Assembly (NCBI GenBank): GCA_040275305.1
Contig: JBEOJY010000001.1
Span: 78,858 to 142,857, forward strand
Source of the DNA: Bdellovibrionales bacterium
GTDB lineage: Bacteria; Pseudomonadota; Alphaproteobacteria; UBA9219
DNA length: 64,000 nucleotides
Reading direction: 5' to 3'
Both the position numbers and the translations under genes were made by a program. Numbering within the stretch: position 1 is the stretch's first letter; every line of letters starts with the position of its first letter. Below are positions 8,533 through 63,843 of the stretch, piece after piece. The notes under the pieces are model-generated. The model was not told where the DNA came from. It ran no database searches and was given only the letters and a program-made list of their open reading frames with translations.

Positions 8533-8537
8533 GCGTG

Positions 8538-10700: not shown

Positions 10701-10952
10701 ATGACTACTATGGCTGATGTTTACCTATCACAAAATTCCCGTGAAAAGTACGCGCGGGGAGCCGAAAATAATGATGAGCAACGAGCCGCGCATTCTGCTG
10801 TAGGTCGAATGACGGTGACATCTGCCCAAGTGGCTGCTGCAAGCCTTTGTAGTGGCTTTGGATTTGGCGATTATTCTTTGCGCGAGGGGGGGCATCCCAA
10901 GTGGGTTCGTGGGGGCCGCTATAATTGTAGTATGGACTGTGCTCCGGCTTAA
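10701..10952 (+). CDS. Small hypothetical protein (83 aa) with Cys/Gly-rich C-terminus; its own SD and terminator
   Basis: aaggag 7 nt upstream of the ATG. AT-rich promoter region. Intrinsic terminator 11010-11039 follows. AT-shifted codons. C-terminus CSGFGFGDYSLREGGHPKWVRGGRYNCSMDCAPA. Confidence 0.45.
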   Translation: MTTMADVYLSQNSREKYARGAENNDEQRAAHSAVGRMTVTSAQVAAASLCSGFGFGDYSLREGGHPKWVRGGRYNCSMDCAPA

Positions 10953-11009
10953 TTACTTAAGCTCTCATATTTTTGGGTGCCACGTTTCTATAGTTCTATA
11001 TGGAAACAA

Positions 11010-11039
11010 GGGCGGCTGATGGATCAGCCGCCCTTTTTG
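11010..11039 (+). terminator. Rho-independent terminator (bidirectional-looking) between the small ORF and the convergent oxygenase gene
   Basis: gggcggctga-tgga-tcagccgccc stem followed by tttttg. Confidence 0.7.
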
Positions 11040-11041
11040 CA

Positions 11042-11806
11042 TTATCCTTTCAGCGTGATCGGCTTGTCTGGGAAGGAGAGCTGGTCGCGGTCGCGCCAGA
11101 GGGAGCGGACATAGTTGACTTCCATCAGGCGGCGGACGCCTTTGATGGGGCGTTTTTCGAAGCCGTGGAAGGTCACGTCAGAACGGACGAAGATGACGGC
11201 GGAGTTGAACGCGGCGGTCGAGCGGCCTACCCATTTCTTGTCGGCATCATAGATATCCGTGCCCCAGTCTTTCGCTTCCGGGCCAGTGCACAAGTAGATC
11301 ACCATCGAGAAAAGTTTGGCCGTGATGTCCGGGTGCGGTTCCAGCCATGCGCCGTCGGTGTCTTGAATGTATTCGACGCGCAGGTAGCTGCCTTCGATGT
11401 CGTTTGGCGGGAGGTTCAGGGTTTCCGTAATTTGTCGCGCGACTTCCGGGCGCTGGAACGCATCGCAGAAGGTTTGGACCGCCGGGAAATCCTCGCGCAT
11501 TTCGGGCGTGAAGAAGGAGCGCTTTCGGTTGTTTTGCTCGTAATCGCGGACGCCTGCGCATTCTTCAATGGCTGGCGGCACGATGGGGAGGACGAGCACG
11601 CCGACGCACATGTCTTCCGGTAGCGTGTTTTTAAGCACCCAGCGACGGTAGGGCTGTTCCTTGATTTCGCTGGCTTTCAGTGCGCCGATGAAGTGGGTTG
11701 CGATGGATTCTGGTGAGGAGAGCTGGAGAAATTCGTGATAGGGTTTCCCTGAAATTTCTGCGCTTTGGTTTTCTTCGATTCGCAAGGCTGTTTGCGTGTA
11801 GGACAT
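11042..11806 (-). CDS. 2OG-Fe(II)-oxygenase-like protein (HxD...H facial triad), paralogue 1
   Basis: LEPHPDITAKL ... VTFHGFEKRP ... RRL. Start at MSYTQTALRIE; the upstream ORF extension runs through repeat C. Confidence 0.55.
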   Translation of the reverse strand: MSYTQTALRIEENQSAEISGKPYHEFLQLSSPESIATHFIGALKASEIKEQPYRRWVLKNTLPEDMCVGVLVLPIVPPAIEECAGVRDYEQNNRKRSFFTPEMREDFPAVQTFCDAFQRPEVARQITETLNLPPNDIEGSYLRVEYIQDTDGAWLEPHPDITAKLFSMVIYLCTGPEAKDWGTDIYDADKKWVGRSTAAFNSAVIFVRSDVTFHGFEKRPIKGVRRLMEVNYVRSLWRDRDQLSFPDKPITLKG

Positions 11807-49435: not shown

Positions 49436-50407
49436 ATGACTCGCAGCCGCCTCGTCATAGCTGCTAAGCTTGCCTTGTCAGGTGGCATTATATATTTGCT
49501 GGGGCAGCGGTTCGAGGCTCGGCAACTTCTCGAATCGATGCATGGCTTCGATCCGTCTTATTTGTTGGCTTCGATCTTTTGCGCCGTTCTGGCCGTTCCC
49601 ATCGTTGGATACCGTTGGGTTCTGCTTGCTAAGGCGCTTTCCGTATCCATTTCGTTTGTCGAGGCCGTTAACGCGACGTTCGCAGGGCTGTTTGTCGGAC
49701 AAATATTACCAGGCGCCATTGGCGCAGATCTTGTGCGCGGCTGGATGGTTTGGAGGGCCAAAGTCAGCAACAAGCGCATGATCGCAAGCCTCGTGCTGGA
49801 CAGGGTCGTTTCGTTGGGCGCGGTCGGGCTTATGATCGCGGGGACGTTGCCGTTTCTTATTGTTCGGCTGCCGCGCGAGCATTTTCTTTGGGTGGTGTGG
49901 AGTCTTCTGGGATTGACCGGGTGTTTGATCGCGGCATATGTCGGCTTGCGTCTTTTCGGGCGCATCAGCAAGAATTTGTCCTTACGCGCCATGATCGACA
50001 AGCTTGATTTGAAGCGATTAAAATTGTCTGTCTCGGACGCTTTGGTTTTGGCGGCTCTCGGCATCGCCGGGCATGTCGCCATGATCGTGTCCGCCTATTT
50101 TCTTAGTAAGGCTATCGGCATGAATTCGGCGCTGTGGATGTGGATGCTGGTCATGCCGGTCGTAATTTTGGCCAGCGCTATCCCGCTTTCCATCAATGGG
50201 TGGGGCGTGCGCGAATTTATGATGATTCAACTTTGGGCATCTTTTGGTTTTCTTGAGTCTGAAGCGTTTCTGACTTCCGTCTGTCTTGGCGCCGTTGCCA
50301 TGGCGTCTAGCCTTCCGGGGGTTTGGTTTTATCTGAAACGTAAATCAGGGCGGTCGCGAGAATCCCTTGAAAAGTATGCACAGGGTTTTTCCAAGAGGTT
50401 GGTGTGA
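49436..50407 (+). CDS. Flippase-like membrane protein (UPF0104 / lysyl-PG-synthase TM-region family)
   Basis: ~8 TM helices, 323 aa. Family commonly partnered with polyprenyl-phosphate glycosyltransferases. Confidence 0.55.
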   Translation: MTRSRLVIAAKLALSGGIIYLLGQRFEARQLLESMHGFDPSYLLASIFCAVLAVPIVGYRWVLLAKALSVSISFVEAVNATFAGLFVGQILPGAIGADLVRGWMVWRAKVSNKRMIASLVLDRVVSLGAVGLMIAGTLPFLIVRLPREHFLWVVWSLLGLTGCLIAAYVGLRLFGRISKNLSLRAMIDKLDLKRLKLSVSDALVLAALGIAGHVAMIVSAYFLSKAIGMNSALWMWMLVMPVVILASAIPLSINGWGVREFMMIQLWASFGFLESEAFLTSVCLGAVAMASSLPGVWFYLKRKSGRSRESLEKYAQGFSKRLV

Positions 50408-52038
50408 TGACTCTTTCGATCAAAAATAAAAACGCAGTTTATCGCGCTATAGATTTCACTCAAATTCTTATTCTTGTTGGGATATTTGTTTATTACTTTG
50501 TCGAGAATTTCGTGTTGTCCGGGAGCTGGGAAATCCTAGCGCTTCGGAGCGTTGACGACGCGGCGATGCAGGGGGCTGTCCATAATATACATAAGGCGAT
50601 GACGGAGGGGCGTTATCCGCTTAACAAGCTGCTTGCAACATTCGATTATGCTTACGGCAACGCATACTGGCTCTTGACCTCCATACTTCTTTTTCCTTTC
50701 TATCTTATCGGCGACGCGCAGGCTCAGATCGTCGCGGGGCGGCAGATTTCCTTGCTGTTTGTCGCTGGCAGCATTTATGTCATGGGGCGCATTGTTGAAA
50801 AGTTGTATCCCGAATCTCGTCGATTGAAATATCCTTTGATGATCGCGATGGCAACCGCTCCGATGGTCGCGGTAATCGCAACGAAGCTTCACGTCAACGC
50901 GCCGTGCATCTTTTGGGGCGTTTTGTCGTTTTACTACCTTGTGCGACGTCCGGACTTTATCAGGAAAGATATGATGTGGTCGGCGGTGTTCGCCGGAGTT
51001 GCTGTGGGCTTCAAGCTTACGGCGGTTTTTATTCTTCCCGTCATAGGTTTGACGTTACTCAGTCAAATCTGGCGGTTCAGTCCTTTGAGGAAGATTACCG
51101 AGATCGCTATTTTTTCCGGCCTGTTTCTTGTGGTCGCCGCAGCTTCCATGTTTCCACCCTTGCTGTTGTTTCCGTTTTACGGCGACAAAATTTCCGAGGC
51201 CTATAAAGCTTTTTTGATGTTTAGGGATCTTGCCGCTATTGGCGGCAACAGCGACTTATTTTTGAAACTTATTAACACGCTTGGTTATTTTCTCTCGCCT
51301 TTGACACTTGCTGTCCTGTCGTTCCTGTTTCTTATGCTGATCCTTGACGATATCAGGAAGCGTAGATTTGTGAGTTCGTTCATTTTCGGCACCATCTTGC
51401 TGACGCTAGGTTATCTTGTTTTGACCGTCCAAAAGGATGCTACGTATGTCGCGAGTTATATGTTGAGCGTTAGCCTGTTCCTGCCGCTTGGGCTTCTGGG
51501 GGTCGCTGCGTTCCGTGCGCCAGAATCGATCAAGCTTACCGTACTTTATCTTATCGTCGTCTCTGGCTTGATTTGCATGACGCCTCATCAGAAAAGCGTG
51601 TTTGATTATTTTAATTTCTTTGCGCTTGCCAAAAGCGAAAAAGCGACTAATCAAATGGCTGCTCTGGAAGAGATAAGGTCCTTGGTTTCGCCGTTGAAGC
51701 TTCCAGTTCGTGTTTTACAGGATTGCGAGTCCGTTTTTCCGGCGACGATGTACACCGATGGCGTTTTTATCGGGTATATTTTCGGGGACCTGAAAGACAA
51801 GACGACATGGGGGGATTTTGACTATATCCTTTTGAGCCGCAAGCATTACATTGGTAAGCCGCCTGCTCCGCTGGTCATCGACAAGAAGACTCCATTGGAG
51901 AAGCTTTCTGGCACCGAACTTGAAGAAGCCATAAGACAGCGTCTGTATGACAAGGGGGATTATTACGGGCGCAAGTATCGTTTGATTTACGATCGTTACG
52001 ATTCGCTTTTGTATCAGCTTGTGAAGCCAGCAAAATAA
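50407..52038 (+). CDS. Polytopic membrane protein, GT-C-like (ArnT/PMT-type) glycosyltransferase candidate
   Basis: ~11 predicted TM helices in the first 400 aa plus a 140-aa soluble C-terminus. Start overlaps the upstream stop (TGATG). Confidence 0.4.
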   Translation: MTLSIKNKNAVYRAIDFTQILILVGIFVYYFVENFVLSGSWEILALRSVDDAAMQGAVHNIHKAMTEGRYPLNKLLATFDYAYGNAYWLLTSILLFPFYLIGDAQAQIVAGRQISLLFVAGSIYVMGRIVEKLYPESRRLKYPLMIAMATAPMVAVIATKLHVNAPCIFWGVLSFYYLVRRPDFIRKDMMWSAVFAGVAVGFKLTAVFILPVIGLTLLSQIWRFSPLRKITEIAIFSGLFLVVAAASMFPPLLLFPFYGDKISEAYKAFLMFRDLAAIGGNSDLFLKLINTLGYFLSPLTLAVLSFLFLMLILDDIRKRRFVSSFIFGTILLTLGYLVLTVQKDATYVASYMLSVSLFLPLGLLGVAAFRAPESIKLTVLYLIVVSGLICMTPHQKSVFDYFNFFALAKSEKATNQMAALEEIRSLVSPLKLPVRVLQDCESVFPATMYTDGVFIGYIFGDLKDKTTWGDFDYILLSRKHYIGKPPAPLVIDKKTPLEKLSGTELEEAIRQRLYDKGDYYGRKYRLIYDRYDSLLYQLVKPAK

Positions 52039-52050
52039 GTAGGATGTTTG

Positions 52051-52584
52051 ATGAATAGCGTTTTAAAGCCCAAGCAATTCATTCTTGATGTCGATGGCGT
52101 TATGACCACTGGCCAATTCCTCTATACGCCTGAGGGCAAGGCCATGAAGGTCTTTGGTCCGGACGATAATGACGCGCTTTCGCTGCTCAAACCGTATATG
52201 GATATCCGCTTCGTGACGGGCGACAAAAAGGGGTTTCCTATCAGCAAGAGACGCATCGTCGACGATATGGGCTTTTCTTTGGAGATCGTCAGCACGATTC
52301 GCCGCATCGACTGGATTCGCCAGCAGTTCGATCCTCAGGACGTTATCTATATGGGCGACGGAATCTTTGACCACTATGTCATGCGGCAGGTGGGGTATGC
52401 TATCGCGCCCGCAAATTCGGATGCACTTGCGAAGCGCCATGCGCATTTTGTCACGCAGAGAAGCGGTGGCGATCGCGCCGTCGCGGAGGCTTGTCTTCAC
52501 ATTCTGGAGAGGTTCTTCGCGCCCTATAATCCAGACATGTTGCCGAGCGAAAACACCAAGCTTTCCGGGGAGTGGACCGTATGA
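52051..52584 (+). CDS. HAD-IIIA phosphatase, KdsC-like
   Basis: ILDVDGVMTTG, ...GDK..., YMGDG..D motifs of the KdsC/YrbI subfamily. SD agga 5 nt upstream. Confidence 0.7.
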   Translation: MNSVLKPKQFILDVDGVMTTGQFLYTPEGKAMKVFGPDDNDALSLLKPYMDIRFVTGDKKGFPISKRRIVDDMGFSLEIVSTIRRIDWIRQQFDPQDVIYMGDGIFDHYVMRQVGYAIAPANSDALAKRHAHFVTQRSGGDRAVAEACLHILERFFAPYNPDMLPSENTKLSGEWTV

Positions 52585-53750
52585 TTCATCAAAGACTGGA
52601 GTCATTTCTCAACAAGCGGCGTTGCACGCTTTTGGGCCTTGGCCCTATGAGCGTCAATTGCGTCGATGCCGCAATCGAGTTGGCGAACGAGCATGAGATT
52701 CCGCTGTTGATGGTCGCCTCGCGGCGACAGATCGATTCTGAGGATTTCGGAGGGGGCTATGTCAACAATTGGACGACTTCGGAATTCGCTCGCTATGTGA
52801 TCGACCATGACAAGAAGGGCAAAATCCTTCTGGAACGCGATCATGGCGGGCCGTGGCAGAATACTAAGGAGATTGATGCGGGGCTTAGCCTGCGTCGCGC
52901 CATGGAGTCTGCCAAGGCGTCATATCGCGCCGATATCGATGCTGGATTTCAGATTATCCATATCGATCCGAGCGTGGATATTCATGGAACGCCGGATGTT
53001 GACGATGTTCTGGAGAGGATCTTCGAGCTTTATGAATATTGTTGGAGCCATGCGCAGAAGCTTCAGCGAGAGATCATTTTTGAGATCGGCACGGAGGAGC
53101 AGAGCGGTAGCACCAACACGCAGGAGGAGTTGGACTACACATTGAGAACGGTCAAACGCTTTTGTTCCAAGAACAATTTCCCACAGCCGACTTTTGTCGT
53201 CGTGCAGTGCGGTACGCGCACGAAAGAGACCCGCAATGTGGGGTCTTTCGACGCTCCGGTGCGCGTCGCCGACGAGTTGCCGCCGGAAATCCAGTTGCCT
53301 AGGATGATCGAGATTTGTAACAAATACTCCATCTTCATGAAGGAGCATAACGCAGACTATCTTTCGGATGCGGCTTTACAGTGGCATCCGCGTCTGGGCA
53401 TTCATGCGGCTAACATTGCGCCGGAATTCGGCGTCGCGGAGACTCGCGCTTTGGTTTCGATTCTGGAGTCCCATGGCCAGAAGAAGTCTGCCGAAGAATT
53501 TCTTAAGGCTTCGTATGATTCCAGAAAATGGGAGAAATGGATGGTCGAGAACACCAAGGCGACTGATCGCGACAGGGCCATTATTTCAGGACACTATGTG
53601 TTCTCCAAGCCGAAGGTCGTCGAGCAATTGGCGGCGGCCAAACAGAATCTCAAGGCGAAAGGCATCGACCTTGATCTTCAGCTTAAAGAGGCCGTCAAGA
53701 AATCCATCTTGCGCTATCTTGTCAATTTCCGTCTCGCGAGGGTCGCATGA
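52572..53750 (+). CDS. GatZ/KbaZ-family (tagatose-bisphosphate aldolase non-catalytic subunit-like) TIM-barrel protein
   Basis: The N-terminal ~110 aa align with E. coli GatZ: LLGLGPMSVNCVDAAIELA vs GICSVCSAHPLVIEAAL; LLMVASRRQIDSEDFGGGYVNNWTTSEFARYV vs [28 protein letters not shown]. Overlaps the kdsC-like 3' end by 13 nt. Confidence 0.55.
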   Translation: MDRMIHQRLESFLNKRRCTLLGLGPMSVNCVDAAIELANEHEIPLLMVASRRQIDSEDFGGGYVNNWTTSEFARYVIDHDKKGKILLERDHGGPWQNTKEIDAGLSLRRAMESAKASYRADIDAGFQIIHIDPSVDIHGTPDVDDVLERIFELYEYCWSHAQKLQREIIFEIGTEEQSGSTNTQEELDYTLRTVKRFCSKNNFPQPTFVVVQCGTRTKETRNVGSFDAPVRVADELPPEIQLPRMIEICNKYSIFMKEHNADYLSDAALQWHPRLGIHAANIAPEFGVAETRALVSILESHGQKKSAEEFLKASYDSRKWEKWMVENTKATDRDRAIISGHYVFSKPKVVEQLAAAKQNLKAKGIDLDLQLKEAVKKSILRYLVNFRLARVA

Positions 53751-54574
53751 ACAAGCGCGTTGCTACGATTATTTTGAATCGCAATCTGCCGGAGGCGACG
53801 GATCGACTGTATGATCATTTGATTAAACACGATGGCGATTTTACGGATGTGTATGTCGTCGAGTCCGGTTCCGATCCCGATCGCTTGTCCAAACATGTCA
53901 CATGGCGCGCGGATTGGCCTGAGGCGGTCGCTCATGGTTTGCGCTTTAACAGGGGGATGAATTACGGGTTGAGCCAGTTGTGGAAGGAAGGCAAGTTCAA
54001 GAACTATGACGCATTCTTTCTTCTGACGAACGATTCGGAACTGCAAGATAGCTCGACGCTCAAGCCGTTGTTGGATATTCTTGACAAGCATCGGCGGGTC
54101 GGGATTCTGTCGCCCTGCGGCAAGCGTTGGGGCGAAAGATTTCTGCTTAAGCATCAGACGACGAAATATTTTTGGTTCATTCACAACAACGCCTTGTTGT
54201 TGCGACGCGAGTTTGTCGAGGCGGTTCTTAACGCGGATCAGCCCGATCATATGGGGTTTTTGTTTGATGGCGCAAACTTTCGGGGCTACGGCGCGGAAAG
54301 CGAAATGATCGCCAAGGCCTATGCCAACGACTGGGCGGCGGCCATCACTTCGGATGTTTACGTCGGGGAGAACGAATCGTATCTTCTCAATCAGGCTGAT
54401 CTGATCAAGACGGAAGGCTATGAAGAGAATTTGAGGCTCTATATCGAGGAAGGCCAGCGCTGGATGCGCAATAAGTACGGATTCAACAGCCGCTGGTCGA
54501 TGCAGCAATATGTGAAGAGCTTCTACGAACGGTTCTTCGACTTTTATCCGGAATACAAAAACTATCAGGTGTGA
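53747..54574 (+). CDS. GT-A-fold glycosyltransferase-like protein
   Basis: VATIILNRNLPE at the N-terminus resembles the GT2 start; TNDSE possible DxD. ATGA overlap with the upstream gene. Confidence 0.4.
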   Translation: MNKRVATIILNRNLPEATDRLYDHLIKHDGDFTDVYVVESGSDPDRLSKHVTWRADWPEAVAHGLRFNRGMNYGLSQLWKEGKFKNYDAFFLLTNDSELQDSSTLKPLLDILDKHRRVGILSPCGKRWGERFLLKHQTTKYFWFIHNNALLLRREFVEAVLNADQPDHMGFLFDGANFRGYGAESEMIAKAYANDWAAAITSDVYVGENESYLLNQADLIKTEGYEENLRLYIEEGQRWMRNKYGFNSRWSMQQYVKSFYERFFDFYPEYKNYQV

Positions 54575-54582
54575 GGATCGTC

Positions 54583-54927
54583 ATGGACGTTATCGAAAAG
54601 CCTTGGGGCAAGGAAGAAGTGATCGAGATCAATGATCGCTATATGATGAAGAAGCTTACGATGTGGAAAGGCCATCGTTGCAGCATTCAGTATCATAACG
54701 TCAAATGCGAGACGATCTATGTGTTGTCGGGGCAGTTGCGCATCTATAGCGGCCCTTCGCTTGAAAAGCTTGACTCCAAGGTTTATGTGCCCGGCGAGAC
54801 GATCACGATCAGGCCGGGGACCGTTCATCGCATGGAAGCGGTCGAGGATAGCGTCTATCTAGAAGCCAGCACCCCGGAAATGACAGATGTGGTGCGGCTT
54901 CAGGACGATTATCAAAGGGCTTCGTAG
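54583..54927 (+). CDS. Cupin-domain protein (mannose-6-phosphate-isomerase type II C-terminal-like)
   Basis: EKPWGKEE ... H.CSIQYH ... ETIYVLSG. SD gagga upstream. Confidence 0.6.
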   Translation: MDVIEKPWGKEEVIEINDRYMMKKLTMWKGHRCSIQYHNVKCETIYVLSGQLRIYSGPSLEKLDSKVYVPGETITIRPGTVHRMEAVEDSVYLEASTPEMTDVVRLQDDYQRAS

Positions 54928-56504
54928 TGGGGTACAGGGTTTGCATTCCGACCGCAGGGACGGGGTCAAGGCTCGGCGGGTTGACGCGGTATGTCAATAA
55001 GTCGCTGGTCGCTCTTGCCAACCGTCCGACCTTGTCGCATGTGATCGAGCAATTTCCACAAGATGCAGAATTCGTCATTCCGCTGGGGCACAAGGCTCAT
55101 CTGGTACGCGAATATTTGCAGTTGGCCTATCCGCAGCGCAAATTTTTCTTCGCCAGCGTTTCGCCGTTCGAAGGGCCGGGGTCGGGGCTTGGGCTTAGCC
55201 TGCTCACCTGCAAGGAATTTCTCCAGCAACCCTTCATCTTCATTTCCTGTGATACTCTGGTGAAAGAACCGATCCCCGCGCCTGACCAAAACTGGATGGG
55301 CTATGCGGAGTTGGATCAGATTGCGTCGTACAGGACGCTTTGCGTTCGCGATGGGAAGGTCGAGAGGATTTGCGAGAAGGGCGAGGGGAGTCCGGAGACG
55401 CACAAGCCCTATATCGGGCTTGCAGGCATTCACGATTACAAGGCTTTCTGGGAGGCTATGGAGGCGGGCGGCGACAAGACGATTGCTATGGGTGAGTCGC
55501 ACGGAATGCGCGACCTTGTGGGCCTTGACATTCGCGCGCATGGCTTCACGTGGTTCGACACGGGCAATCCGCAGGCTTTGGCGCGGACTCAGGAAGCCTA
55601 TCGGGTGGCGGATGCTCCTAATATTCTTGAGAAGGCGAACGAGGCGATTTGGTTCGTGGACGGCAAGGTCATCAAGTTTTCGGACGACGAAAAGTTTATT
55701 CGGAACAGGGTCGAGCGCGTTGGCGAGCTTACGGGATTCGTGCCGGAAGTTACGGGTTCGACCGCTCATATGTACAGCTATGCCAAGGTGAAGGGCAGGG
55801 TGCTGTCCGAGGCGGTGACGCTGCCGGTATTTGACAAACTGTTGGCATTCAGCAAGGGATTTTGGCAACCGCATGCGTTGGACGCCGCCGGGGCCAAGGC
55901 TTTCCATGACGGCTGCATGAAGTTTTATCGGGACAAGACTTTGGAGCGCGTGCAGCTTTTCTATAAGAATTTCAAGCGGCAGGACGGCACGGAATCCATC
56001 AATGGGTTCGCTATGCCGACGCTTGAGGAATTGTTCAAGTCGCTGGATTGGGAGTGGCTTGCGCAGGGTATGTCAGGACGGTTCCATGGCGATTTTCATT
56101 TCGAGAATATTTTGTGGGATGCTGATACAAAACGGTTTGTTTTTCTTGATTGGCGACAAGATTTTGGCGGCGATCTTAAGACGGGCGATGTTTATTACGA
56201 TCTGGCTAAGCTTTGGCATGGCCTTATCATTTGCCATGAGTTGATTGCCCAGAATCAATTCTTGGTCGAATGGGGCGCTAGGGAAATCCGTTACGATTTT
56301 CATCGTAAACAGATGCTGGTCGCGTGCGAAGAGGCGTATAGGCGATGGCTTGATGCTGAAGGATATGACCGCAAGAAAGTTTGGATTATGACGGCGCTGG
56401 TCTACCTTAATATTGCGGCTTTGCACCATTATCCCTATTCGTTGTTGTTGTATGCCTTGGGCAAGGCGATGCTGTTCAGAGGATTGCAAGATGCAGTTGA
56501 TTGA
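54927..56504 (+). CDS. Fused nucleotidyltransferase (N-term) plus APH/choline-kinase-like kinase (C-term); LicCA-like or MurU/AmgK-like
   Basis: N-terminus CIPTAGTGSRLG (sugar/alcohol-phosphate NTase G-loop). C-terminus HGDFHFENILWD...FLDW (Brenner HGDxxxxN motif and D of APH/ChoK fold). GTG start overlaps the cupin stop. Confidence 0.6.
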   Translation: MGYRVCIPTAGTGSRLGGLTRYVNKSLVALANRPTLSHVIEQFPQDAEFVIPLGHKAHLVREYLQLAYPQRKFFFASVSPFEGPGSGLGLSLLTCKEFLQQPFIFISCDTLVKEPIPAPDQNWMGYAELDQIASYRTLCVRDGKVERICEKGEGSPETHKPYIGLAGIHDYKAFWEAMEAGGDKTIAMGESHGMRDLVGLDIRAHGFTWFDTGNPQALARTQEAYRVADAPNILEKANEAIWFVDGKVIKFSDDEKFIRNRVERVGELTGFVPEVTGSTAHMYSYAKVKGRVLSEAVTLPVFDKLLAFSKGFWQPHALDAAGAKAFHDGCMKFYRDKTLERVQLFYKNFKRQDGTESINGFAMPTLEELFKSLDWEWLAQGMSGRFHGDFHFENILWDADTKRFVFLDWRQDFGGDLKTGDVYYDLAKLWHGLIICHELIAQNQFLVEWGAREIRYDFHRKQMLVACEEAYRRWLDAEGYDRKKVWIMTALVYLNIAALHHYPYSLLLYALGKAMLFRGLQDAVD

Positions 56505-57627
56505 AAGATCCCGTTGCGCGATTTCCGGGCAGGACGATCTGGAGCCGCTTTACACGTTTCCCAAGTTTCCCGTGTTCATGGGGTGCATGGATCAGCCGGA
56601 GACGGACGATCTCAAGCAGGATATGGCTTGGTGGATCAGCCGGGGAAGCGGCTTGATCCAATTGAAGAACTTGTTGCCTCTCGATGTGCTCTATCCGGAG
56701 TCGCATGGTTCCGGCGCAATCGGCGCGTTATGGGAGAAGCATCACAGGACGTTCGCGCAGTTTATTCATCGCCTCAATCCTTCGTCGGTGCTGGAGATCG
56801 GAGGGGGGCATGGCATGCTGGCCAAAGAATATCAGTCTTTGGCTGACATTCCGTGGACGATCCTTGAGCCGAATCCTTCTCCGGTCGAGGGATTGAAAGC
56901 GCGCATCATCAAGGGTTTCTTCGACGAGCGCTTTACGTTTAGCGATTCGTTCGATGTTCTCGCGCACTCCCATGTTTTCGAGCATATTTATGAACCCGAC
57001 CAGTTTATGGGCCAATTATCCCACTTTATGAAGGTCGGGCAGCATCTGGTGTTTTCCTTGCCGAATATGCAGGTCATGCTTGAGCGCCAGTACAACAATT
57101 GCATCAATTTTGAGCACACGGTTTTGCTGACCGAGACCTATGTCGAGCATTTGCTCGCCAAACATGGGTTCAGGGTTCATGCCAAGGAATTCTTCATGGA
57201 CGATCACAGCATCTTTTATGACGCGGTGCGCGATGATACCATGAAGCCGATGGCGCTGCCGTCTGGGCTCTACGATTCCTATAAGAATCTTTATCTGGGC
57301 TATGTCGGTCATCATCAAAAGCTGGCTTCGGAATTGAACGAGACGATCCGGGGTCTTTCCGGACCGGTCTATCTCTTTGGCGCGCATGTGTTTTCGCAAT
57401 ATATGCTCGCGTTCGGGCTGGATGAGAGCAAGATCACATGCCTGCTGGATAACGATCCAAACAAGCAGGGACGGAGGCTTTACGGCACGTCGCTCGGCGT
57501 GAAATCCCCCTCTTGTCTTAAGTCGGTGGACAAACCGCATGTTATTTTGAAGGCAGGCGTTTACAATCAGGAAATAAAAAATGATATATTGAAGAATATC
57601 AATCCGCATACTGTCTTTTTGGGGTGA
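56491..57627 (+). CDS. Class I SAM-dependent methyltransferase with C-methyltransferase-type N- and C-terminal extensions
   Basis: VLEIGGGHGMLA motif I. ~380 aa architecture like NDP-sugar C-/O-methyltransferases. Confidence 0.6.
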   Translation: MQLIERSRCAISGQDDLEPLYTFPKFPVFMGCMDQPETDDLKQDMAWWISRGSGLIQLKNLLPLDVLYPESHGSGAIGALWEKHHRTFAQFIHRLNPSSVLEIGGGHGMLAKEYQSLADIPWTILEPNPSPVEGLKARIIKGFFDERFTFSDSFDVLAHSHVFEHIYEPDQFMGQLSHFMKVGQHLVFSLPNMQVMLERQYNNCINFEHTVLLTETYVEHLLAKHGFRVHAKEFFMDDHSIFYDAVRDDTMKPMALPSGLYDSYKNLYLGYVGHHQKLASELNETIRGLSGPVYLFGAHVFSQYMLAFGLDESKITCLLDNDPNKQGRRLYGTSLGVKSPSCLKSVDKPHVILKAGVYNQEIKNDILKNINPHTVFLG

Positions 57628-57630
57628 TCC

Positions 57631-58521
57631 ATGGCTGCCGCGCATAGTTCTGGCCTTAAAGTCGGCCTTATCATCCCGGTTTTCAATGTCGAAAAAACCA
57701 TCGCTAAGGTTTTGGCGGGGATTCCGCAAAAGTTTTTTGAGGATATTTCTGAAATCCTTGTCGTCGACAACCATAGCTCCGATAACACCGTGCCTGTGAT
57801 CATGGGGTTTATGAACGAGCACCCGGATTTCGCTTCGCATGTTACATTCATTCAACATGCCGAGAATTACGGCTATGGCGGTAGCATTAAGGCTGGTTTT
57901 GAGTATTTCATCAACCGAGGCATGACCCATGCGATGATTTTCCATGGGGATCATCAGGTTGATCCCGCGTGGCAGATTGGCCTTCTTTTGAGCATCATCA
58001 AGGATAAGCCGCAGACGGATCTTGTGATGTCGAGCCGTTTTTTGTCCGAAAGCAAGATCGAGAACTACAGCCTTCTACGCACCGTCGGCAACTATTTCTT
58101 CAATGCCGTGACGACGCTTTGCTCCGGTTGCAAGATGTCGGATGCAGGGACGGCGATTATCGTCGCGCGTTGCGACGCGTTGAGCCGGGTGCCGTTTCGC
58201 AATCTTTCCAACACGTGGCAGTTCCATCCGCAGCTTAATATTCTTATCCACAAACTGCCGAATGTGCAGGTGGTGGAGACGACCTTAAACTGGTCGGATT
58301 CCGAGGCTGGTTCGTCGGTGCCCCTGATTCGCTATGGCTTGATCTTGTTGAGAATGCTTGTGCGGTATTGGTACAAGACGAATGTTCTGAGACAGAAGCC
58401 GGAGCAGGCTTTCCCGGTCGATTCGGTTCGGGCTGATCGCCGCTATACCGTGTTGATGCAGTCAGGAAAGGACGCTCCTGTCGCGTGCGGCGAGGCTGTG
58501 GGATTGTCCGCAGCGCGGTGA
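57631..58521 (+). CDS. GT2 polyprenyl-phosphate glycosyltransferase (DPM1/GtrB/ArnC-like)
   Basis: GLIIPVFNVEKTI, VVDNHSSDNT (DxD-like). C-terminal amphipathic/TM region. Confidence 0.75.
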   Translation: MAAAHSSGLKVGLIIPVFNVEKTIAKVLAGIPQKFFEDISEILVVDNHSSDNTVPVIMGFMNEHPDFASHVTFIQHAENYGYGGSIKAGFEYFINRGMTHAMIFHGDHQVDPAWQIGLLLSIIKDKPQTDLVMSSRFLSESKIENYSLLRTVGNYFFNAVTTLCSGCKMSDAGTAIIVARCDALSRVPFRNLSNTWQFHPQLNILIHKLPNVQVVETTLNWSDSEAGSSVPLIRYGLILLRMLVRYWYKTNVLRQKPEQAFPVDSVRADRRYTVLMQSGKDAPVACGEAVGLSAAR

Positions 58522-58525
58522 ATTA

Positions 58526-59413
58526 TCAGCCGGCTTTTTCTTCGTTCAGCAGGCGCAGGATGTATTGTCCGTAGCCGCTTTTGGCCATGGGTTGGGCCAG
58601 ACGTTCGAGCTGTTCCGCGCTTATGAAGCCTCGGCGGAACGCTACTTCCTCAGGACAGGCGATTTTCAGGCCTTGCCGCTTTTCAATGGTTCTCACGAAT
58701 AAGCCCGCGTCCATCAGACTGTCATGCGTCCCGGTGTCTAGCCATGCGTAGCCGCGCCCCATGATTTCGACGTTGAGCTGGCCTCGTCGCATGTAGTGGC
58801 GGTTTACGTCGGTGATTTCCAGTTCGCCACGCGCTGAGGGCTTGAGGTTCTTTGCGATATCGACGACTTGGTTGTCATAAAAATATAGACCAGTCACGGC
58901 GTAGTTGCTTTGCGGATTAGCTGGCTTTTCTTCCAAAGAGATGGCGTGGCCATCCTTGTCGAAGGAGACGACACCATAGCGCTCCGGGTCCTGCACACGG
59001 TAGGCGAAGACGGTTGCGCCGCTTTTGCGCGCGTTAGCATGCTCGGTGCGCATCGGCAGGTCGTTGCCGTAGAAGATATTGTCGCCCAACACAAGGGCGC
59101 TTGGCGCGTCGCCAAGGAAGTCTTGCGCGATCAGGAAGGCTTGCGCGAGGCCGTCGGGGCTAGGCTGCACAGCGTACTGAAAGTTCATGCCCCATGGGTT
59201 TCCATCGCCCAACAATTGCTCGAAGCGCGGCGTGTCCTGCGGCGTCGAGATAATCAGGATGTCGCGCAGACCCGCCAGCATCAGGACGCTGAGAGGATAA
59301 TAAATTAATGGCTTATCGAAGACCGGCAGCAACTGCTTGGAGACCGCCATGGTCAGGGGATAGAGCCTCGTGCCGGAGCCTCCGGCGAGGACGATGCCTT
59401 TGCGTGCAAGCAT
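58526..59413 (-). CDS. rfbA: Glucose-1-phosphate thymidylyltransferase
   Basis: [16 protein letters not shown], typical RmlA. Confidence 0.92.
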
Positions 59414-59526
59414 AATTTTTACCAATTGCCTGTTTCTGGCCGCTTTACTGTGTTGGGACGTTGCTGTGTCGCCCGCATTTCTGATAGAGTGTGGCCTATC
59501 TCTTTCATGAAAGACGTGCCAGACAA

Positions 59527-60084
59527 ATGCTTGCGGTTCAAGAATTATCCATTCCCGGCGTCAAGTTGGTCCGGCCTAGGGTTTTCGATGACCCTCGCGG
59601 CACGATGACCGAGGTCGCGCACGATGCGCGGTTTCGCGAGTTGGGATTCCCGGATTTTGTGCAGGAAAATCAATCTTTTTCGAGGCTTCGCGGCACGATT
59701 AGGGGTATGCATTTCCAGAAACCGCCACAGGCGCAAGCCAAGCTGGTGAGGGTTTTACGAGGCCAGATTTTCGATGTCGCGGTTGATGTGCGGCCACAAT
59801 CGGCGAGTTTTGGGCGGCATGCGGTGGCGATGCTATCGGAAGACGAGCTGGCGTGGCTTTATGTTCCCGAAGGCTTCGCGCATGGGTTTTGCACGCTGAC
59901 GAAGGATGTTCAGGTTCTGTACAAGGTTTCTTCCTACTATGCGCCGGGCAGCGAGTGCGGCATGCGTTGGAATGATCCGGCGCTGGGGATTGATTGGCCG
60001 ATTTCCCCGTCAGAGGCGGTTTTATCGGATAAGGACATGCAATTGCCATTGTTCAAGGATCTTCCGGCGGTCATTTGGGGTTAA
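59527..60084 (+). CDS. rfbC: dTDP-4-dehydrorhamnose 3,5-epimerase
   Basis: DDPRG...F.E...[14 protein letters not shown]. RmlC cupin. Confidence 0.9.
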
Positions 60085-60118
60085 TTGTTACGCAGTTGAT
60101 TTCATAGGGTGTATTGCG

Positions 60119-61222
60119 ATGGTTGAGACTCATCATAGCAACAGAGTGCTGGTGACGGGATGCGCGGGATTTATCGGCGCGAATTTTGTTCATCACTTTT
60201 TGGGGCGCACGCGTGGCGGTGGCGCGGTGGTGGGGCTGGATAAGCTGACCTACGCTGGGTGTCTCAAGAATTTGGAGAGCCTTGAGGGCGATGCGCGGTT
60301 TGCCTTCGCGCGCGGCGATATCGGCGACGTTGCGCTTGTGAGGAGCTTGCTTGAGAAGCATAAGCCAGCGGCGATCATCAATTTCGCCGCCGAGTCGCAT
60401 GTTGATCGCTCGATCCATGCGCCGGAAGCGTTCATCGAAACGAATGTGGCGGGGACGTTCCGGCTGCTTGAGGCAGTGAAGGCGTATTGGGTTGGGTTGG
60501 AGGGCGAAGAGAAAGCGCAGTTTCGTTTTCTGCATATTTCGACCGACGAGGTCTATGGTTCGCTGGGGCCGAACGACCCCGCTTTTACCGAAGAGAATCC
60601 CGCGCGGCCCAACAGCCCTTATGCGGCGTCAAAGGCGAGCTCAGATCATCTTGCGCGGGCGTATCACCACACTTATGGGTTGCCTACTTTGACGACGAAT
60701 TGCTCGAACAATTATGGGCCGTACCAGTTCCCTGAAAAGCTAATTCCGCTCATGATTCACCATGCGCTTGCAGGCAAGAAATTGCCGGTTTATGGCGACG
60801 GGCAGAATGTACGCGACTGGCTTTTCGTTGAAGATCATTGCGTGGCGATTATGCGTGTGCTGGAAGCGGGGCGCGTGGGAGAGGTCTATAATGTTGGTGG
60901 GCGCAACGAGGTCAAGAATCTCGATGTCGTGCATACGCTTTGCGATATTCTGGACCGTTTAAGGCCTCGCGCGGAGGGTGGTTCGTACCGTGAGCAAATT
61001 ACCTTTGTCATGGATCGTCCGGGGCATGACAGGCGCTATGCGATTAATGCCGACAAGATTGCGGCGGAGCTTGGCTGGAAACCTGCGGAGACTTTCACAA
61101 CAGGGTTCGAGAAGTCGGTGCGCTGGTATTTGGAGCATGAAGACTGGGTTGCGCATGTCACATCTGGCGCATATCGCCAGTGGATGGAGACGAATTACGA
61201 AGGACGTGTAGCGCGGGCGTGA
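60119..61222 (+). CDS. rfbB: dTDP-glucose 4,6-dehydratase
   Basis: VLVTGCAGFIG, YAASK, extended-SDR RmlB motifs. Confidence 0.93.
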   Translation: MVETHHSNRVLVTGCAGFIGANFVHHFLGRTRGGGAVVGLDKLTYAGCLKNLESLEGDARFAFARGDIGDVALVRSLLEKHKPAAIINFAAESHVDRSIHAPEAFIETNVAGTFRLLEAVKAYWVGLEGEEKAQFRFLHISTDEVYGSLGPNDPAFTEENPARPNSPYAASKASSDHLARAYHHTYGLPTLTTNCSNNYGPYQFPEKLIPLMIHHALAGKKLPVYGDGQNVRDWLFVEDHCVAIMRVLEAGRVGEVYNVGGRNEVKNLDVVHTLCDILDRLRPRAEGGSYREQITFVMDRPGHDRRYAINADKIAAELGWKPAETFTTGFEKSVRWYLEHEDWVAHVTSGAYRQWMETNYEGRVARA

Positions 61223-61349
61223 GATATTTTTAGCTCGCTGCCGCTTGCGGATGGATGCCGGATCAAGTCCCGCATGACGTGGAGAGTGCAATCGTCAGAA
61301 ATCGTAGTTGTGCCTTGGGGGGGATTCCATGGGGACCGTGCCAGTTCAG

Positions 61350-62072
61350 CTATGCTGGCGGTCTTTCGATTTCGGTGACGGTTCCGTGCTCAAGGCGGAA
61401 GAAGCGGTTGCAATAATCGCGCACGAGTTTGTTGTCGTGCGAGGCGAAGACGAAGATTCCAACCGAGCGGATCAATTCTTCCATGCGTTGTTTGGCCTTG
61501 ACCTGAAACTCGGCGTCTCCGGTGCCGAACATTTCATCCACAAGTAGGATATCGGGCTTGGTCGAGGTCGCGACGGCGAACATCAGGCGCGTGGCCATAC
61601 CGCTTGAATAGGTGCGGACGGGCAGTTCGAGAAATTCCCCCAGCTGTGTGAATTCCTCGATTTCTTTCGCGTTACGTTTGATTTCCGCATTCGACAAGCC
61701 CAGAAGCTTTGACATGCGGATGATGTTCTCGTAGCCGGATAGCTCCATATCCATTCCGGTTCCAAGCTCTAGTACGGTCGCTACCCTTCCTGTGCGTTCT
61801 ACCCGGCCTTCCATGGGGGCGTAGACTCCGGCCATGGTGCGCAGCATTGTGCTTTTGCCCGCGCCATTGTGTCCTATCAGGCCAACAGTGTCGCCTTCGC
61901 GCAGCGTGAAGCTGACATTCTTCAGCGCGGTGACGAGGCGGATGTTTCCGGCGTCTTCTTCGATGCGGCCGCCTGTGCTGATGCGCACGAGGTGGTTGCG
62001 CAGGGACATGCTGCGGCTGTTGTAGATCGGGTAACGGATGGTTACGTTGTCGAAGGCGAGATGCGCGCTCAT
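61350..62072 (-). CDS. ABC transporter ATPase for polysaccharide export (Wzt/KpsT/TagH-like)
   Basis: GHNGAGKST, YSSGMATRL, LLVDE. Confidence 0.85.
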   Translation of the reverse strand: MSAHLAFDNVTIRYPIYNSRSMSLRNHLVRISTGGRIEEDAGNIRLVTALKNVSFTLREGDTVGLIGHNGAGKSTMLRTMAGVYAPMEGRVERTGRVATVLELGTGMDMELSGYENIIRMSKLLGLSNAEIKRNAKEIEEFTQLGEFLELPVRTYSSGMATRLMFAVATSTKPDILLVDEMFGTGDAEFQVKAKQRMEELIRSVGIFVFASHDNKLVRDYCNRFFRLEHGTVTEIERPPA

Positions 62073-62089
62073 GTTCGGTTCCGCCTATC

Positions 62090-62872
62090 CTATACCCAGA
62101 ATGCAATGCGCTTGCATTTGGCGTTGAACATCGCAAGCGCCAAAGCTCCGCCGATTAGCAGCATGCCGCCATTGACGGCGTAGAGAAACCACGGAGTCGG
62201 TTCGCCGAGAAGCGGCGACCTGATGATTTCGATCATGTTGGCTAGCGGATTGAGCCATATATATTTTCCGGAAAAAGGCAGCGCGTTCGGGCGGTACAAC
62301 ACGGGGCTTAGGAACATCAGGAGCGGCAAGATCATGGCGACCAGATATTCGAAGTCGCGGAATCTTGCGCCCATCATGCCGAAGATCAGAGAAATCCAGA
62401 ATAGATTGCCTACGACCAACAAAAAGCCGGGAATTACCATCAGCGTGTTCAAGTTGATTGGCGAACCAAGAATCAGGGCCACAATAAAGAATAGAGGAAC
62501 ATTGTGCGCGATGTTGATTGTGTGGCGCAAAGCTAGCTGGGCGACATGCAGAGAGAGCGGCAGGTCGAGATTTTTGATGATGTTCGCCTGTCGCGTGAAG
62601 ACAGAGGTTGATTCGGCGATGCAGGAAGCCATGAACTGCCAGAGAATCAGGCCGGCCGTCAGCGAGGGTATGTAGGTCGCTTTGTCTTGTTTGAACAGTT
62701 CGCTCCAAATGAAGCCCAAGCCGACGACGCCGAAGGCGGTTCCTATCGTGATCCATAGCGGGCCTAGCACGCTGCGTTTATAGCGCGCACGAATGTCGCT
62801 CCAAGCCATGTACAGGATCAGGCTTGGGTTCTTGAAGGTTTTTATGATGTCAGACAGACCGGGAGCACTCAT
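62090..62872 (-). CDS. ABC-2 type permease (Wzm/KpsM-like)
   Basis: 6 TM helices; ABC-2 signature region. Start MSAPGLSDIIKTF. Confidence 0.8.
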   Translation of the reverse strand: MSAPGLSDIIKTFKNPSLILYMAWSDIRARYKRSVLGPLWITIGTAFGVVGLGFIWSELFKQDKATYIPSLTAGLILWQFMASCIAESTSVFTRQANIIKNLDLPLSLHVAQLALRHTINIAHNVPLFFIVALILGSPINLNTLMVIPGFLLVVGNLFWISLIFGMMGARFRDFEYLVAMILPLLMFLSPVLYRPNALPFSGKYIWLNPLANMIEIIRSPLLGEPTPWFLYAVNGGMLLIGGALALAMFNAKCKRIAFWV

Positions 62873-62964
62873 TAGCGCTGGGTTCCTTGGAAAACGGGTA
62901 GTCTCCATTACCCGAAAATGACGCGAGAGGCAATTCGTTCGCCTTATGTTCCGTTTGGGGTGTT

Positions 62965-63843
62965 TTATTTATGACGCAGGCGCCAGCCCACGCATTTAAG
63001 AGCGGCGCGGAGCCAGATGGCGGGCAGGAGGAAAGTGAGAAGCGGGATGTCGCGCGGGCTTGAGAAATTGTTGAGAAAATAGCGGGTGAAGCCTTTCGCT
63101 TTACAGATTTCGAGGAATGTCGATGTGGCTTCGCTGGTGCCGCCAACATGGGTCATCGCGATATCTGGCGCGAAGTAAATTTCTCCTCCTGCGCGGCGGA
63201 AACGCAAGCAGAGGTCGAGGTCTTCAACATGCAAAAAATAGCCTTCGTCGTAGCCGCCGATGGCCCAGTAGTCTTTTGCGCACAGAAACATGAAGGCGCC
63301 GCTGATCGCGGGGATCGGGGCGATAGATGCAGGAATTGGCTCTTCGTGCAGGTTGAGGCGCAAGCGGGGGAACAGGCGGTGCATGCGCAGGGCTTCGATG
63401 CTGGCCGAGAGGGGGGTTAGTAGCGCGCGGCGGCTTCCGCGCTGGTCGCGTCCCTGTTCGTCCAGAAGCCTTGCGCCGATCATGGCGGGCTGTTTGAGGT
63501 CGCTTTCCCGCATATGGGTCAGCAGGCGGTCAATGGTGTTCGGTTTCAGCAGTCCGTCGGGGTTCAACAACAAAAGATATTTTCCTTTGGCCGCCTTCGC
63601 GCCGAGATTGCAGGCGGTTGCGAAGCCGACGTTGCCATGGCTGGAGAGCCAGACCATGCGCGGCTCGGTTTTCGCGCGCGCCGCAAGCTTTAATTCCACA
63701 TCGGGAGGATTGCCATTGTTGACGAGCACGAGTTCTACCGACGCGGTCGAACCCAGCACAGCGGCTATCGCCCTTTCTAGTACCTCCCCGGTGTGGTAGG
63801 TGACCATGACGACAGAAGTTAAGGGCGCCTCTGGCGGCATCAT
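62965..63843 (-). CDS. Glycosyltransferase family 2
   Basis: VVMVTYHTGE, NPDGLL, VEDLDLC (DxD). Confidence 0.8.
   Translation of the reverse strand: MMPPEAPLTSVVMVTYHTGEVLERAIAAVLGSTASVELVLVNNGNPPDVELKLAARAKTEPRMVWLSSHGNVGFATACNLGAKAAKGKYLLLLNPDGLLKPNTIDRLLTHMRESDLKQPAMIGARLLDEQGRDQRGSRRALLTPLSASIEALRMHRLFPRLRLNLHEEPIPASIAPIPAISGAFMFLCAKDYWAIGGYDEGYFLHVEDLDLCLRFRRAGGEIYFAPDIAMTHVGGTSEATSTFLEICKAKGFTRYFLNNFSSPRDIPLLTFLLPAIWLRAALKCVGWRLRHK

Follow-up and report, generated by a model that had tools for sequence, protein, structure and literature searches.

A conserved gene cassette with a GatZ-like protein and a KdsC-type phosphatase, predicted to make a nucleotide-activated rare sugar for bacterial surface glycans

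INTRODUCTION

HldE is a fusion of a kinase and a nucleotidyltransferase (NTase) whose two reactions are separated, in the synthesis of nucleoside diphosphate (NDP)-heptose, by the step of GmhB, a phosphatase of the haloacid dehalogenase (HAD) superfamily. The tagatose-6-phosphate 4-epimerase of Agrobacterium belongs to the GatZ_KbaZ-like family PF08013. Two members of this family in Escherichia coli, GatZ and KbaZ, were long called aldolase chaperones and have been reported to turn fructose-6-phosphate (F6P) into tagatose-6-phosphate (T6P); for GatZ, modeling led to a proposed site in which Zn is bound by His88, Glu171, and His257, with Asp87 as the base (PMC11907403). Here, we analyze two adjacent genes, one encoding a KdsC-type HAD phosphatase and the other a GatZ-like TIM-barrel protein, which lie in a 64-kb stretch of DNA from a Bdellovibrionales bacterium (contig JBEOJY010000001.1), the whole of which is called the window below. 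According to our analysis, this pair is part of an unannotated cassette of five to six genes found in many bacterial phyla. With a probability that we put at roughly 0.5, the cassette would be a self-contained module that starts from a central ketose phosphate and makes a rare, nucleotide-activated aldose for use in a cell-surface glycan.

RESULTS AND DISCUSSION

Conservation of the cassette across bacterial genomes

We searched 185,579 species genomes and kept 80 species-level loci with a GatZ-like gene, among which those with enough sequence flanking this gene were considered testable. Beside the GatZ-like gene, the HAD gene was present in 60 of 75 testable loci, a gene for a 275-amino-acid (aa) protein with a predicted glycosyltransferase (GT) fold of type A (GT-A) in 62 of 73, a cupin gene in 64 of 70, a gene for an NTase-kinase fusion in 56 of 64, and a methyltransferase gene in 40 of 61. 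The five core genes occur together in 54 of the 80 loci, 50 of which have them in a compact, colinear array, the order being HAD, GatZ-like, GT-A, cupin, and NTase-kinase, usually followed by the methyltransferase. The original prediction for this DNA had singled out a trio of PF08013, HAD-IIIA, and cupin genes; these families do co-occur, but the conserved unit is the larger one of five to six genes, in which the GT-A gene stands between the GatZ-like and cupin genes. The hosts include Burkholderiales, Planctomycetota, Chlorobiaceae (Chlorobi), Synechococcus/Prochlorococcus, Pelagibacteraceae (SAR11), Elusimicrobia, Desulfobacterota, Bacteroidota, Verrucomicrobiota, Melainabacteria, and phyla of the candidate phyla radiation (CPR), and cultured carriers are available in Massilia sp. 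Root418, Chlorobium ferrooxidans DSM 13031, Solidesulfovibrio aerotolerans DSM 16695, Luminiphilus, and Pseudoduganella strains.

The flanking open reading frames (ORFs) were clustered, and ten of the thirteen most frequent neighbor clusters were annotated. Eight of these ten families belong to glycan synthesis (epimerase/dehydratases, DegT aminotransferases, MsbA-like ATP-binding cassette [ABC] exporters, glycosyltransferases, a sugar dehydrogenase, and a methyltransferase other than that of the cassette), and the other two are a longer cupin variant and a shikimate-dehydrogenase-like gene. Neither in the annotated contexts nor among the ten neighbor families, annotated from 80 glycan-type loci, did we see a galactitol or tagatose transporter, the constant company of which would have spoken for a catabolic role. 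The biosynthetic setting that had been proposed is thus borne out by the annotated neighborhoods.

Two kinds of variation are informative. The GT-A gene is missing from three loci (L070, L074, and L078), which keep the HAD, GatZ-like, cupin, and NTase-kinase genes; a GT family 2 (GT2) gene of the polyprenyl-phosphate type directly abuts the GatZ-like gene in two of them, L070 and L074. The four retained genes therefore appear to be the biosynthetic core, to which an exchangeable glycosyltransferase is attached. In about 19 loci, among them L001/L004, L025, L026, L034, L068, L070, L073, L076, and L078, a second lineage replaces the common cupin/NTase-kinase pair by a 251-aa cupin, whose N terminus is extended by about 110 aa belonging to no family, and by an NTase-kinase that is about 33% identical, while the HAD, GatZ-like, GT-A, and methyltransferase proteins are still 59 to 75% identical. 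The shikimate-dehydrogenase-like gene follows the NTase-kinase gene in 7 loci.

The GatZ-like protein

The GatZ-like protein scores 38 bits against PF08013, for which the gathering score is 26.7, with only residues 30 to 190 being aligned, and a profile built from 38 sequences of its subfamily aligns with E. coli GatZ over 287 columns at an hhalign probability of 98.2%. Its assignment to the GatZ family therefore held up in the profile search. The scores against the equivalog models TIGR02810, PRK15458, and PRK15052 are 32.4, 31.6, and 16.1 bits, below the respective cutoffs of 568.8, 707, and 579. In the protein database, homologs form more than 4,000 sequence clusters at 90% identity, and the best 120 homologs listed are 73 to 93% identical, the figure between phyla being about 75%; about 300 clusters (50% identity) at E values below 1e-30 are set apart as the subfamily.

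According to the profile alignment, Asp87, His88, Glu171, and His257 of GatZ correspond to D87, H88, E168, and H256, of which E168 is invariant and the other three are kept in at least 90% of the 38-sequence subfamily alignment. A tblastn search with E. coli GatY detected no GatY-type aldolase in the window or in 82 loci. Since the catalytic site is conserved and GatY is missing there, the GatZ-like protein is best read as a stand-alone catalyst rather than as a partner subunit, and a noncatalytic chaperone role was rejected for want of its GatY partner. The statement that GatZ proteins are aldolase partners, from which the original prediction had started, is outdated in view of the F6P-to-T6P conversion reported for GatZ and KbaZ (PMC11907403). 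We predict that the protein is a metal-dependent C4-epimerase of ketose phosphates acting by retro-aldol/aldol chemistry. It would thus share with E. coli GatZ and KbaZ the fold, the family, the Asp/His/Glu/His site, and, likely, the chemistry of C4 inversion. It differs from GatZ in being only about 24% identical and in carrying the motif ASRRQ in place of ATSNQ, and from both E. coli proteins in its setting, which has neither the GatY partner nor a phosphotransferase system (PTS) for galactitol or N-acetylgalactosamine (GalNAc) and belongs to glycan biosynthesis instead of catabolism.

The HAD phosphatase and its junction with the GatZ-like gene

The HAD gene (start at 52048 or 52051) encodes a small, cap-less protein of 178 aa with the sequence ILDVDGVMT, which includes the DVDGV nucleophile motif. 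It has the cap-less core, the DxDGV motif, and the length of about 160 to 190 aa that are typical of the KdsC/YrbI type, and it aligns end to end with Protein Data Bank (PDB) entry 2p9j (E value, 2.5e-15) and with KdsC structures (1e-15 to 1e-10). It scores 64.7 bits against TIGR01670 (KdsC/YrbI) and 57.8 bits against the KdsC equivalog PRK09484, the curated cutoffs being 106.95 and 208. The KdsC-type assignment made earlier stands, since the best NCBIfam and PDB matches are KdsC/YrbI proteins, albeit below the TIGR01670 cutoff.

KdsC/YrbI enzymes are phosphatases of 3-deoxy-D-manno-octulosonate-8-phosphate (Kdo-8-P), 2-keto-3-deoxynononate-9-phosphate (KDN-9-P), and N-acetylneuraminate-9-phosphate (Neu5Ac-9-P), with which the cassette protein shares the C0 HAD fold. 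Unlike them, it falls below the family cutoff and is not accompanied by the corresponding genes: among the nine genes of the operon and the ten annotated recurrent neighbor families, we found no synthase for Kdo-8-P, KDN-9-P, or sialic acid and no cytidine monophosphate (CMP)-transferase. A Kdo-like ulosonic acid pathway was rejected for this reason, and the HAD protein likely acts on the phosphate or bisphosphate of a neutral sugar instead of that of an ulosonic acid.

The junction of the two genes had been described as a 13-nucleotide (nt) overlap, which hung on the start codon GTG 52572. In the 38-sequence alignment, however, at least 90% of the proteins use the Met of ATG 52581, and nearly all of the best 120 homologs listed have 389 aa (a few, 386 to 392). 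Furthermore, a GGAG sequence lies 8 nt 5' of ATG 52581, and GTG 52572 falls inside this Shine-Dalgarno region. The true start is almost certainly ATG 52581, so that the overlap shrinks to the 4 nt of ATGA, a form seen at 42 of about 62 HAD/GatZ-like junctions of other genomes and again, in the window, between the GatZ-like and GT-A genes (53747 to 53750).

The cupin, NTase-kinase, methyltransferase, and GT-A proteins

The cupin scores 39.2 bits against PF01050 (gathering score, 23.6). When it is aligned with the C-terminal domain of E. coli CpsB, several motifs (PWG, SxQxH....E, a distal His, and E..S..DDVVR..D.Y.R) and the residues Q36, H38, E43, H82, D102, R105, D108, and R112 are invariant, and the four metal-ligand positions of phosphomannose isomerases (PMIs), Gln/His/Glu/His, are all retained. 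The protein is therefore predicted to be an isomerase between the ketose and aldose forms of a sugar 6-phosphate. It shares its family and invariant motifs with the type II PMI domain, i.e., the C-terminal cupin of the bifunctional guanylyltransferase-PMI proteins ManC, CpsB, and AlgA (GMP-PMI), but it stands alone, with about 115 aa and no fused guanylyltransferase, and is about 31% identical to the CpsB domain. Its pairing with a GatZ-like enzyme also makes F6P an improbable substrate.

In the NTase-kinase, PF12804 and PF00483 match the N-terminal half, and the family profile aligns over the whole length of this half with sugar-1-phosphate NTases, the PDB matches being RmlA-like, CDP-glucose, and LicC NTases. 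The kinase half matches PF01636, the aminoglycoside phosphotransferase (APH) family, at residues 363 to 433, with HGDFHFEN as the catalytic loop (HGDxHxxN in the APH fold); sequence and profile searches placed this domain no closer than "APH fold." We considered a LicC/LicA-type phosphocholine pathway and rejected it in light of the full-length match to sugar-1-phosphate NTases and of the sugar-phosphate enzymes present in the cassette.

The methyltransferase scores 50 bits against PF13489 and weakly against PF08484, the C-terminal domain of C-methyltransferases, and its match to TcaB9 (PDB 4rv9) is full length but weak (E value, 4e-4). Its architecture is that of the sugar C-methyltransferases TcaB9 and TylC3, apparently without most of the N-terminal zinc-ribbon cysteines. 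With TTG 56413 as its first codon, the mechanical ORF would share 92 nt with the gene before it; the start used by homologs, the Met of ATG 56491, gives a protein of 378 aa and an overlap of 14 nt. We regard this enzyme as a probable tailoring step, present in about two thirds of the cassettes.

The 275-aa protein, which is 100% identical to a hypothetical protein of a Bdellovibrionales metagenome-assembled genome (MAG), matched nothing when its sequence and profile were compared with the PDB and Pfam. PF00535 is absent from it even at an E value of 10 and is weakly matched in 4 of 36 homologs, the best E value being 0.003. An AlphaFold2 model, made from an alignment that included 120 divergent homologs, predicts a GT-A fold of the GT2-like kind, with 10 to 17% identity to the solved structures of SpsA, K4CP, GlfT2, PcManGT, WrtF, and TarP. 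The protein has no membrane segment, and its identity of about 70% across phyla is unlike that of the usual glycosyltransferases of glycan synthesis.

Proposed pathway and its alternatives

Drawing on the observed protein families, folds, conserved catalytic residues, and gene order, we infer a step order, a substrate, and a product for the cassette. The GatZ-like enzyme would first invert C4 of a ketose phosphate by metal-dependent retro-aldol/aldol chemistry, the most likely reaction being F6P to T6P, with sedoheptulose-7-phosphate (S7P) or a pentulose-5-phosphate as alternative substrates. The PMI-type cupin would then convert the ketose phosphate into an aldose phosphate, to which a PMI-like stereochemistry would give the talo configuration. 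The APH-fold kinase domain would phosphorylate the anomeric carbon, the KdsC-type HAD protein would take off the distal phosphate, and the fused NTase domain would form the NDP-sugar. Tailoring by the TcaB9-like methyltransferase may follow, as may transfer by the cassette GT-A protein; in the window, the GT2, flippase-like, and GT-C-like proteins described below may also handle the sugar. Our best guess for the product is a talo-configured hexose or heptose. More speculatively, F6P as the substrate would lead to an NDP-D-talose derivative, and S7P would lead to a D-glycero-D-talo-heptose derivative.

By analogy, this scheme has the plan of the GmhA/HldE/GmhB (or HddA/HddC) route, i.e., an isomerase, an anomeric kinase, a distal phosphatase, and an NTase, with kinase and NTase fused. 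It differs from the NDP-heptose route in that a cupin takes the place of a sugar isomerase (SIS)-type isomerase, an APH-fold kinase that of a PfkB or GHMP kinase, and a KdsC-type that of a GmhB-type HAD protein, in the order NTase then kinase within the fusion, and in the additional GatZ-like first step. None of the cassette enzymes is homologous to GmhA, HldE/HddA, or GmhB, the likeness being one of reaction logic only. Most likely, the HAD protein acts after the kinase, in the manner of GmhB, and not directly on the product of the GatZ-like enzyme. The earlier proposal of a ketose-phosphate rearrangement and a dephosphorylation feeding the kinase/NTase agrees with this scheme; the place that it gave to the phosphatase is the part that we would change.

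Several points weigh against the proposed pathway. The assignment of the E. coli GatZ active site is itself based on modeling (PMC11907403). The kinase domain matches APH only around its catalytic loop, and its anomeric specificity is an assumption. The exchange of the cupin and NTase-kinase in about 19 loci is a modular split that a strictly linear pathway does not predict. A transferase with variable glycan acceptors would not usually be as conserved across phyla as the GT-A protein, which suggests an invariant acceptor. Finally, we found no mention of talose-6-phosphate, NDP-talose, or mannoheptulose-7-phosphate in the searchable literature, so that the pathway would explain no known glycan component; nor did our literature search find mention of a bacterial glycan containing tagatose.

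The GatZ-like protein could instead be a true C-C-forming aldolase, joining a dihydroxyacetone-type donor to an aldose or aldose phosphate to give an unusual or higher-carbon ketose phosphate that is then processed. The same logic is followed by LmbR, LmbN, LmbP, LmbK, and LmbO in GDP-octose synthesis, and the five functions of the cassette are those of the octose route. Membership in the class II aldolase superfamily, retention of the metal site and the catalytic Asp, and the ASRRQ motif, whose two added Arg residues could bind an extra phosphate or acid group, would all suit such an enzyme, and epimerization and aldol addition go through the same intermediate (PMC11907403). We nevertheless consider it rather unlikely, given that the F6P-to-T6P conversion is the sole activity of the GatZ/KbaZ family reported in that study, that no cassette enzyme would supply the special aldehyde acceptor, and that a second aldolase would be redundant with the F6P aldolase or transaldolase that follows the PTS-linked relatives described below.

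Another order of reactions would pass through free sugars: the HAD protein would act on the product of the GatZ-like enzyme (e.g., T6P to tagatose), the cupin would isomerize the free ketose, and the kinase and NTase would activate the aldose. The APH-fold anomeric kinases NahK and AmgK do use free sugars, NahK and AmgK/MurU being examples from salvage. The phosphate bookkeeping of this order balances, most loci have the HAD and GatZ-like genes side by side with their translation coupled, and the succession of phosphorylation, epimerization, and dephosphorylation is that of the tagatose route shown in E. coli (PMC11907403). However, the order of reactions cannot be read from gene adjacency (compare HldE with GmhB), the cupin carries the complete signature of PMIs, which are enzymes of 6-phosphates, and CPR loci without HAD or kinase suggest that phosphorylated intermediates are passed to a mutase, so that we deem the free-sugar order unlikely.

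Still less probable is a synthase/phosphatase pair modeled on those of sucrose phosphate, trehalose phosphate, and glucosylglycerate, in which the GT-A protein would glycosylate the GatZ-like enzyme's ketose phosphate with the NDP-sugar produced by the cupin and the NTase-kinase and the HAD protein would dephosphorylate the result to a glycosyl-ketose; the four-enzyme core persists in the three loci without GT-A, the surroundings of the cassette are always clusters for surface glycans, which include exporters and transferases, and not osmolyte loci, and distant relatives keep the GatZ-like/cupin and not the GatZ-like/GT-A adjacency. The ordinary annotation, by which a noncatalytic aldolase chaperone or subunit of galactitol, GalNAc, or tagatose catabolism and a KdsC phosphatase are chance neighbors, agrees with the top Pfam and NCBIfam names and with public annotations but is highly improbable in the face of the missing GatY/KbaY homolog, the lack of PTS or galactitol genes in the annotated contexts, scores far below the equivalog cutoffs, a gene order shared by dozens of phyla, and the retained catalytic residues.

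Returning to the nucleotide-sugar module, our literature search found no published description of the cassette. The combination of enzyme families appears to be unprecedented in such a module, to which an unannotated glycosyltransferase family is attached. We tentatively propose that the cassette is a new and very widespread de novo route to a nucleotide-activated rare sugar that is talo configured or C4 inverted in another way and often methylated, with a new glycosyltransferase family and the first biosynthetic role for GatZ. If so, a single portable cassette would combine a new nucleotide-sugar pathway with a new glycosyltransferase family, in carriers that are among the most abundant bacteria of freshwater and ocean and range from Prochlorococcus and SAR11 to the CPR, as well as in at least one marine virus contig. 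A family long annotated as a noncatalytic aldolase chaperone would gain a role in biosynthesis, and the usual mutase or GmhA/HldE/GmhB chemistry would give way to a KdsC-type HAD protein, a PMI-type cupin, and an APH-kinase/NTase. The predicted product would be a rare, often methylated sugar of the cell surface, not yet recognized as common in the glycans of environmental bacteria; surface glycan composition shapes phage susceptibility and grazing, and such a sugar may also feed dissolved organic matter. An enzyme set leading from F6P through T6P to an aldose phosphate would, moreover, be relevant to the manufacture of rare sugars. The cassette proteins are small and soluble, and several hosts are in culture.

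Genomic context in the window

In the window, the cassette belongs to an operon of nine genes on the + strand (49436 to 58521), listed in Table 1. As judged from the ORF coordinates, every junction is abutting or overlapping, so that tight coupling is a feature of the whole operon and not peculiar to the HAD/GatZ-like pair. A scan of the operon region gave no excess of promoter- or terminator-like sites over shuffled controls. The G+C content is about 0.50 to 0.52 in the module and about 0.55 to 0.58 in the flanks, a gap too small to argue for recent transfer.

TABLE 1 Genes of the operon that carries the cassette in the window
Gene product	Position	Strand	Family or other match
Flippase-like membrane protein (LPG_synthase_TM)	49436-50407	+	PF03706, 124 bits; TIGR00374 flippase-like domain
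Polytopic membrane protein, 544 aa	50404-52038	+	No family
KdsC/YrbI-type cap-less HAD phosphatase	52051-52584	+	TIGR01670; PDB 2p9j; DVDGV motif
GatZ/KbaZ-family TIM-barrel protein, 389 aa	52581-53750	+	PF08013
Soluble GT-A (GT2-like) glycosyltransferase (predicted), 275 aa	53747-54574	+	Outside Pfam families
Small cupin of the type II PMI kind	54571-54927 (start GTG 54571 or ATG 54583)	+	PF01050
NTase-kinase fusion	54927-56504	+	PF12804/PF00483 (N-terminal); PF01636 (C-terminal)
S-adenosylmethionine (SAM)-dependent methyltransferase, 378 aa	56491-57627	+	PF13489; weak PF08484
Polyprenyl-phosphate-type GT2 (accessory)	57631-58521	+	PF00535, 52.8 bits

The flippase-like gene, the first of the operon, is accessory and occurs in only some versions of the cassette; L003 and L084 have it in this position, too. 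For the 544-aa membrane protein, sequence and profile searches gave zero matches in Pfam, NCBIfam, or PDB; a homolog lies between the flippase-like and HAD genes in L003 (40% identity) and, matched by position, in L084 (543 aa). It may be a periplasmic transferase of a GT-C-like type, with a polyprenyl-phosphate-linked sugar as the donor. The top NCBIfam matches of the accessory GT2 are PgfS, PpgS, AglJ, and ArnC, each below its cutoff, and its family, to which the GT2 genes abutting the GatZ-like gene in L070 and L074 belong, adjoins the cassette in about nine loci. The full nine-gene order recurs in L003 and L084, which are a Burkholderiales MAG and a 730-kb metagenome contig. Together, the flippase-like protein, the 544-aa protein, and the GT2 resemble a periplasmic glycosylation system with three components, as in the ArnC/ArnT or Gtr kind, and this presumed system looks dedicated to the sugar of the cassette.

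The 5' neighbors of the operon are housekeeping genes (YceI, cytochrome b561, NlpC/P60, and RelA/SpoT). In the 3' direction (58526 to 63843), the first gene is rmlA on the - strand, followed by rmlC- and rmlB-like ORFs on the + strand, which were read from translations and not from a profile search, and then by wzm/wzt-like genes of an ABC-2 type transporter and a further GT2 gene on the - strand. Because of these rml and wzm/wzt-like genes, the operon is placed at the edge of an O-polysaccharide locus of the ABC-transporter type. The downstream genes suggest an ABC-transporter-dependent, rhamnose-containing O-polysaccharide, which the sugar of the cassette may modify or cap.

Distant relatives and side loci

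GatZ-like and cupin genes are still adjacent at 37 to 51% identity, as seen in the CPR, in an alphaproteobacterium, and on a plasmid of Sinorhizobium (distant relatives L067, L071, L080, and L087). In Liptonbacteria, GatZ-like and cupin genes are accompanied by a separate NTase gene and by methyltransferase genes, without HAD or kinase. The plasmid locus, L087 (Sinorhizobium sp. CCBAU 05631, pSS05631a, 8049 to 11525), encodes a GatZ-like protein (42%), a cupin, a DegT-type aminotransferase, and an HAD-IA hydrolase. This symbiosis plasmid carries the locus near a NopM effector gene, with a DeoR regulator and a Gfo/Idh/MocA oxidoreductase nearby, and the locus may encode a pathway of the amino-sugar or rhizopine-like kind, with the GatZ-like and cupin enzymes at its start.

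In a Balneolaceae MAG (L065, 3941 to 16167), a SusC/SusD polysaccharide-utilization locus contains a GatZ-like gene of 54% identity; L063 and L064 are further examples. Its neighbors in L065 are a Gfo/Idh/MocA oxidoreductase, a 3-keto-disaccharide hydrolase, a GMC oxidoreductase, and a gluconate 2-dehydrogenase subunit, and the other cassette genes are absent. This locus may be a catabolic counterpart for the sugar made by the cassette.

A row of HAD, PMI-type cupin, NTase-kinase, and GatZ-like genes was found at about 6761 to 13756 of L090 (MH319741.1, Marine virus AG-345-E15), a marine Caudoviricetes contig from a single-cell genome. The NTase-kinase is 36% identical over its full length, and the GatZ-like protein is shortened (314 aa, 33%). 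Beside the cassette-like genes stand a 2-oxoglutarate (2OG)-Fe(II) oxygenase gene and then a set of GHMP kinase, cupin, and NTase genes. The contig may carry a viral auxiliary glycan module, or host DNA may be included in the record.

Other GatZ-like relatives, at 35 to 36% identity, are located on plasmids downstream of fructose-type PTS genes. A gene for F6P aldolase comes directly after the GatZ-like gene on a plasmid of Enterococcus faecium DSM 20477 (L088), and a transaldolase gene follows it on the Klebsiella pneumoniae IncR plasmid pCAV1016-90 (L086), where transketolase and HAD-IA genes are nearby. These contexts, a PTS with F6P aldolase or transaldolase, fit the conversion of an imported ketose phosphate to F6P or S7P, and both loci look like uncharacterized catabolic routes for a rare ketose that use the same epimerase chemistry. 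Genes similar to these two GatZ-like genes are also present in Listeria phage and prophage records.

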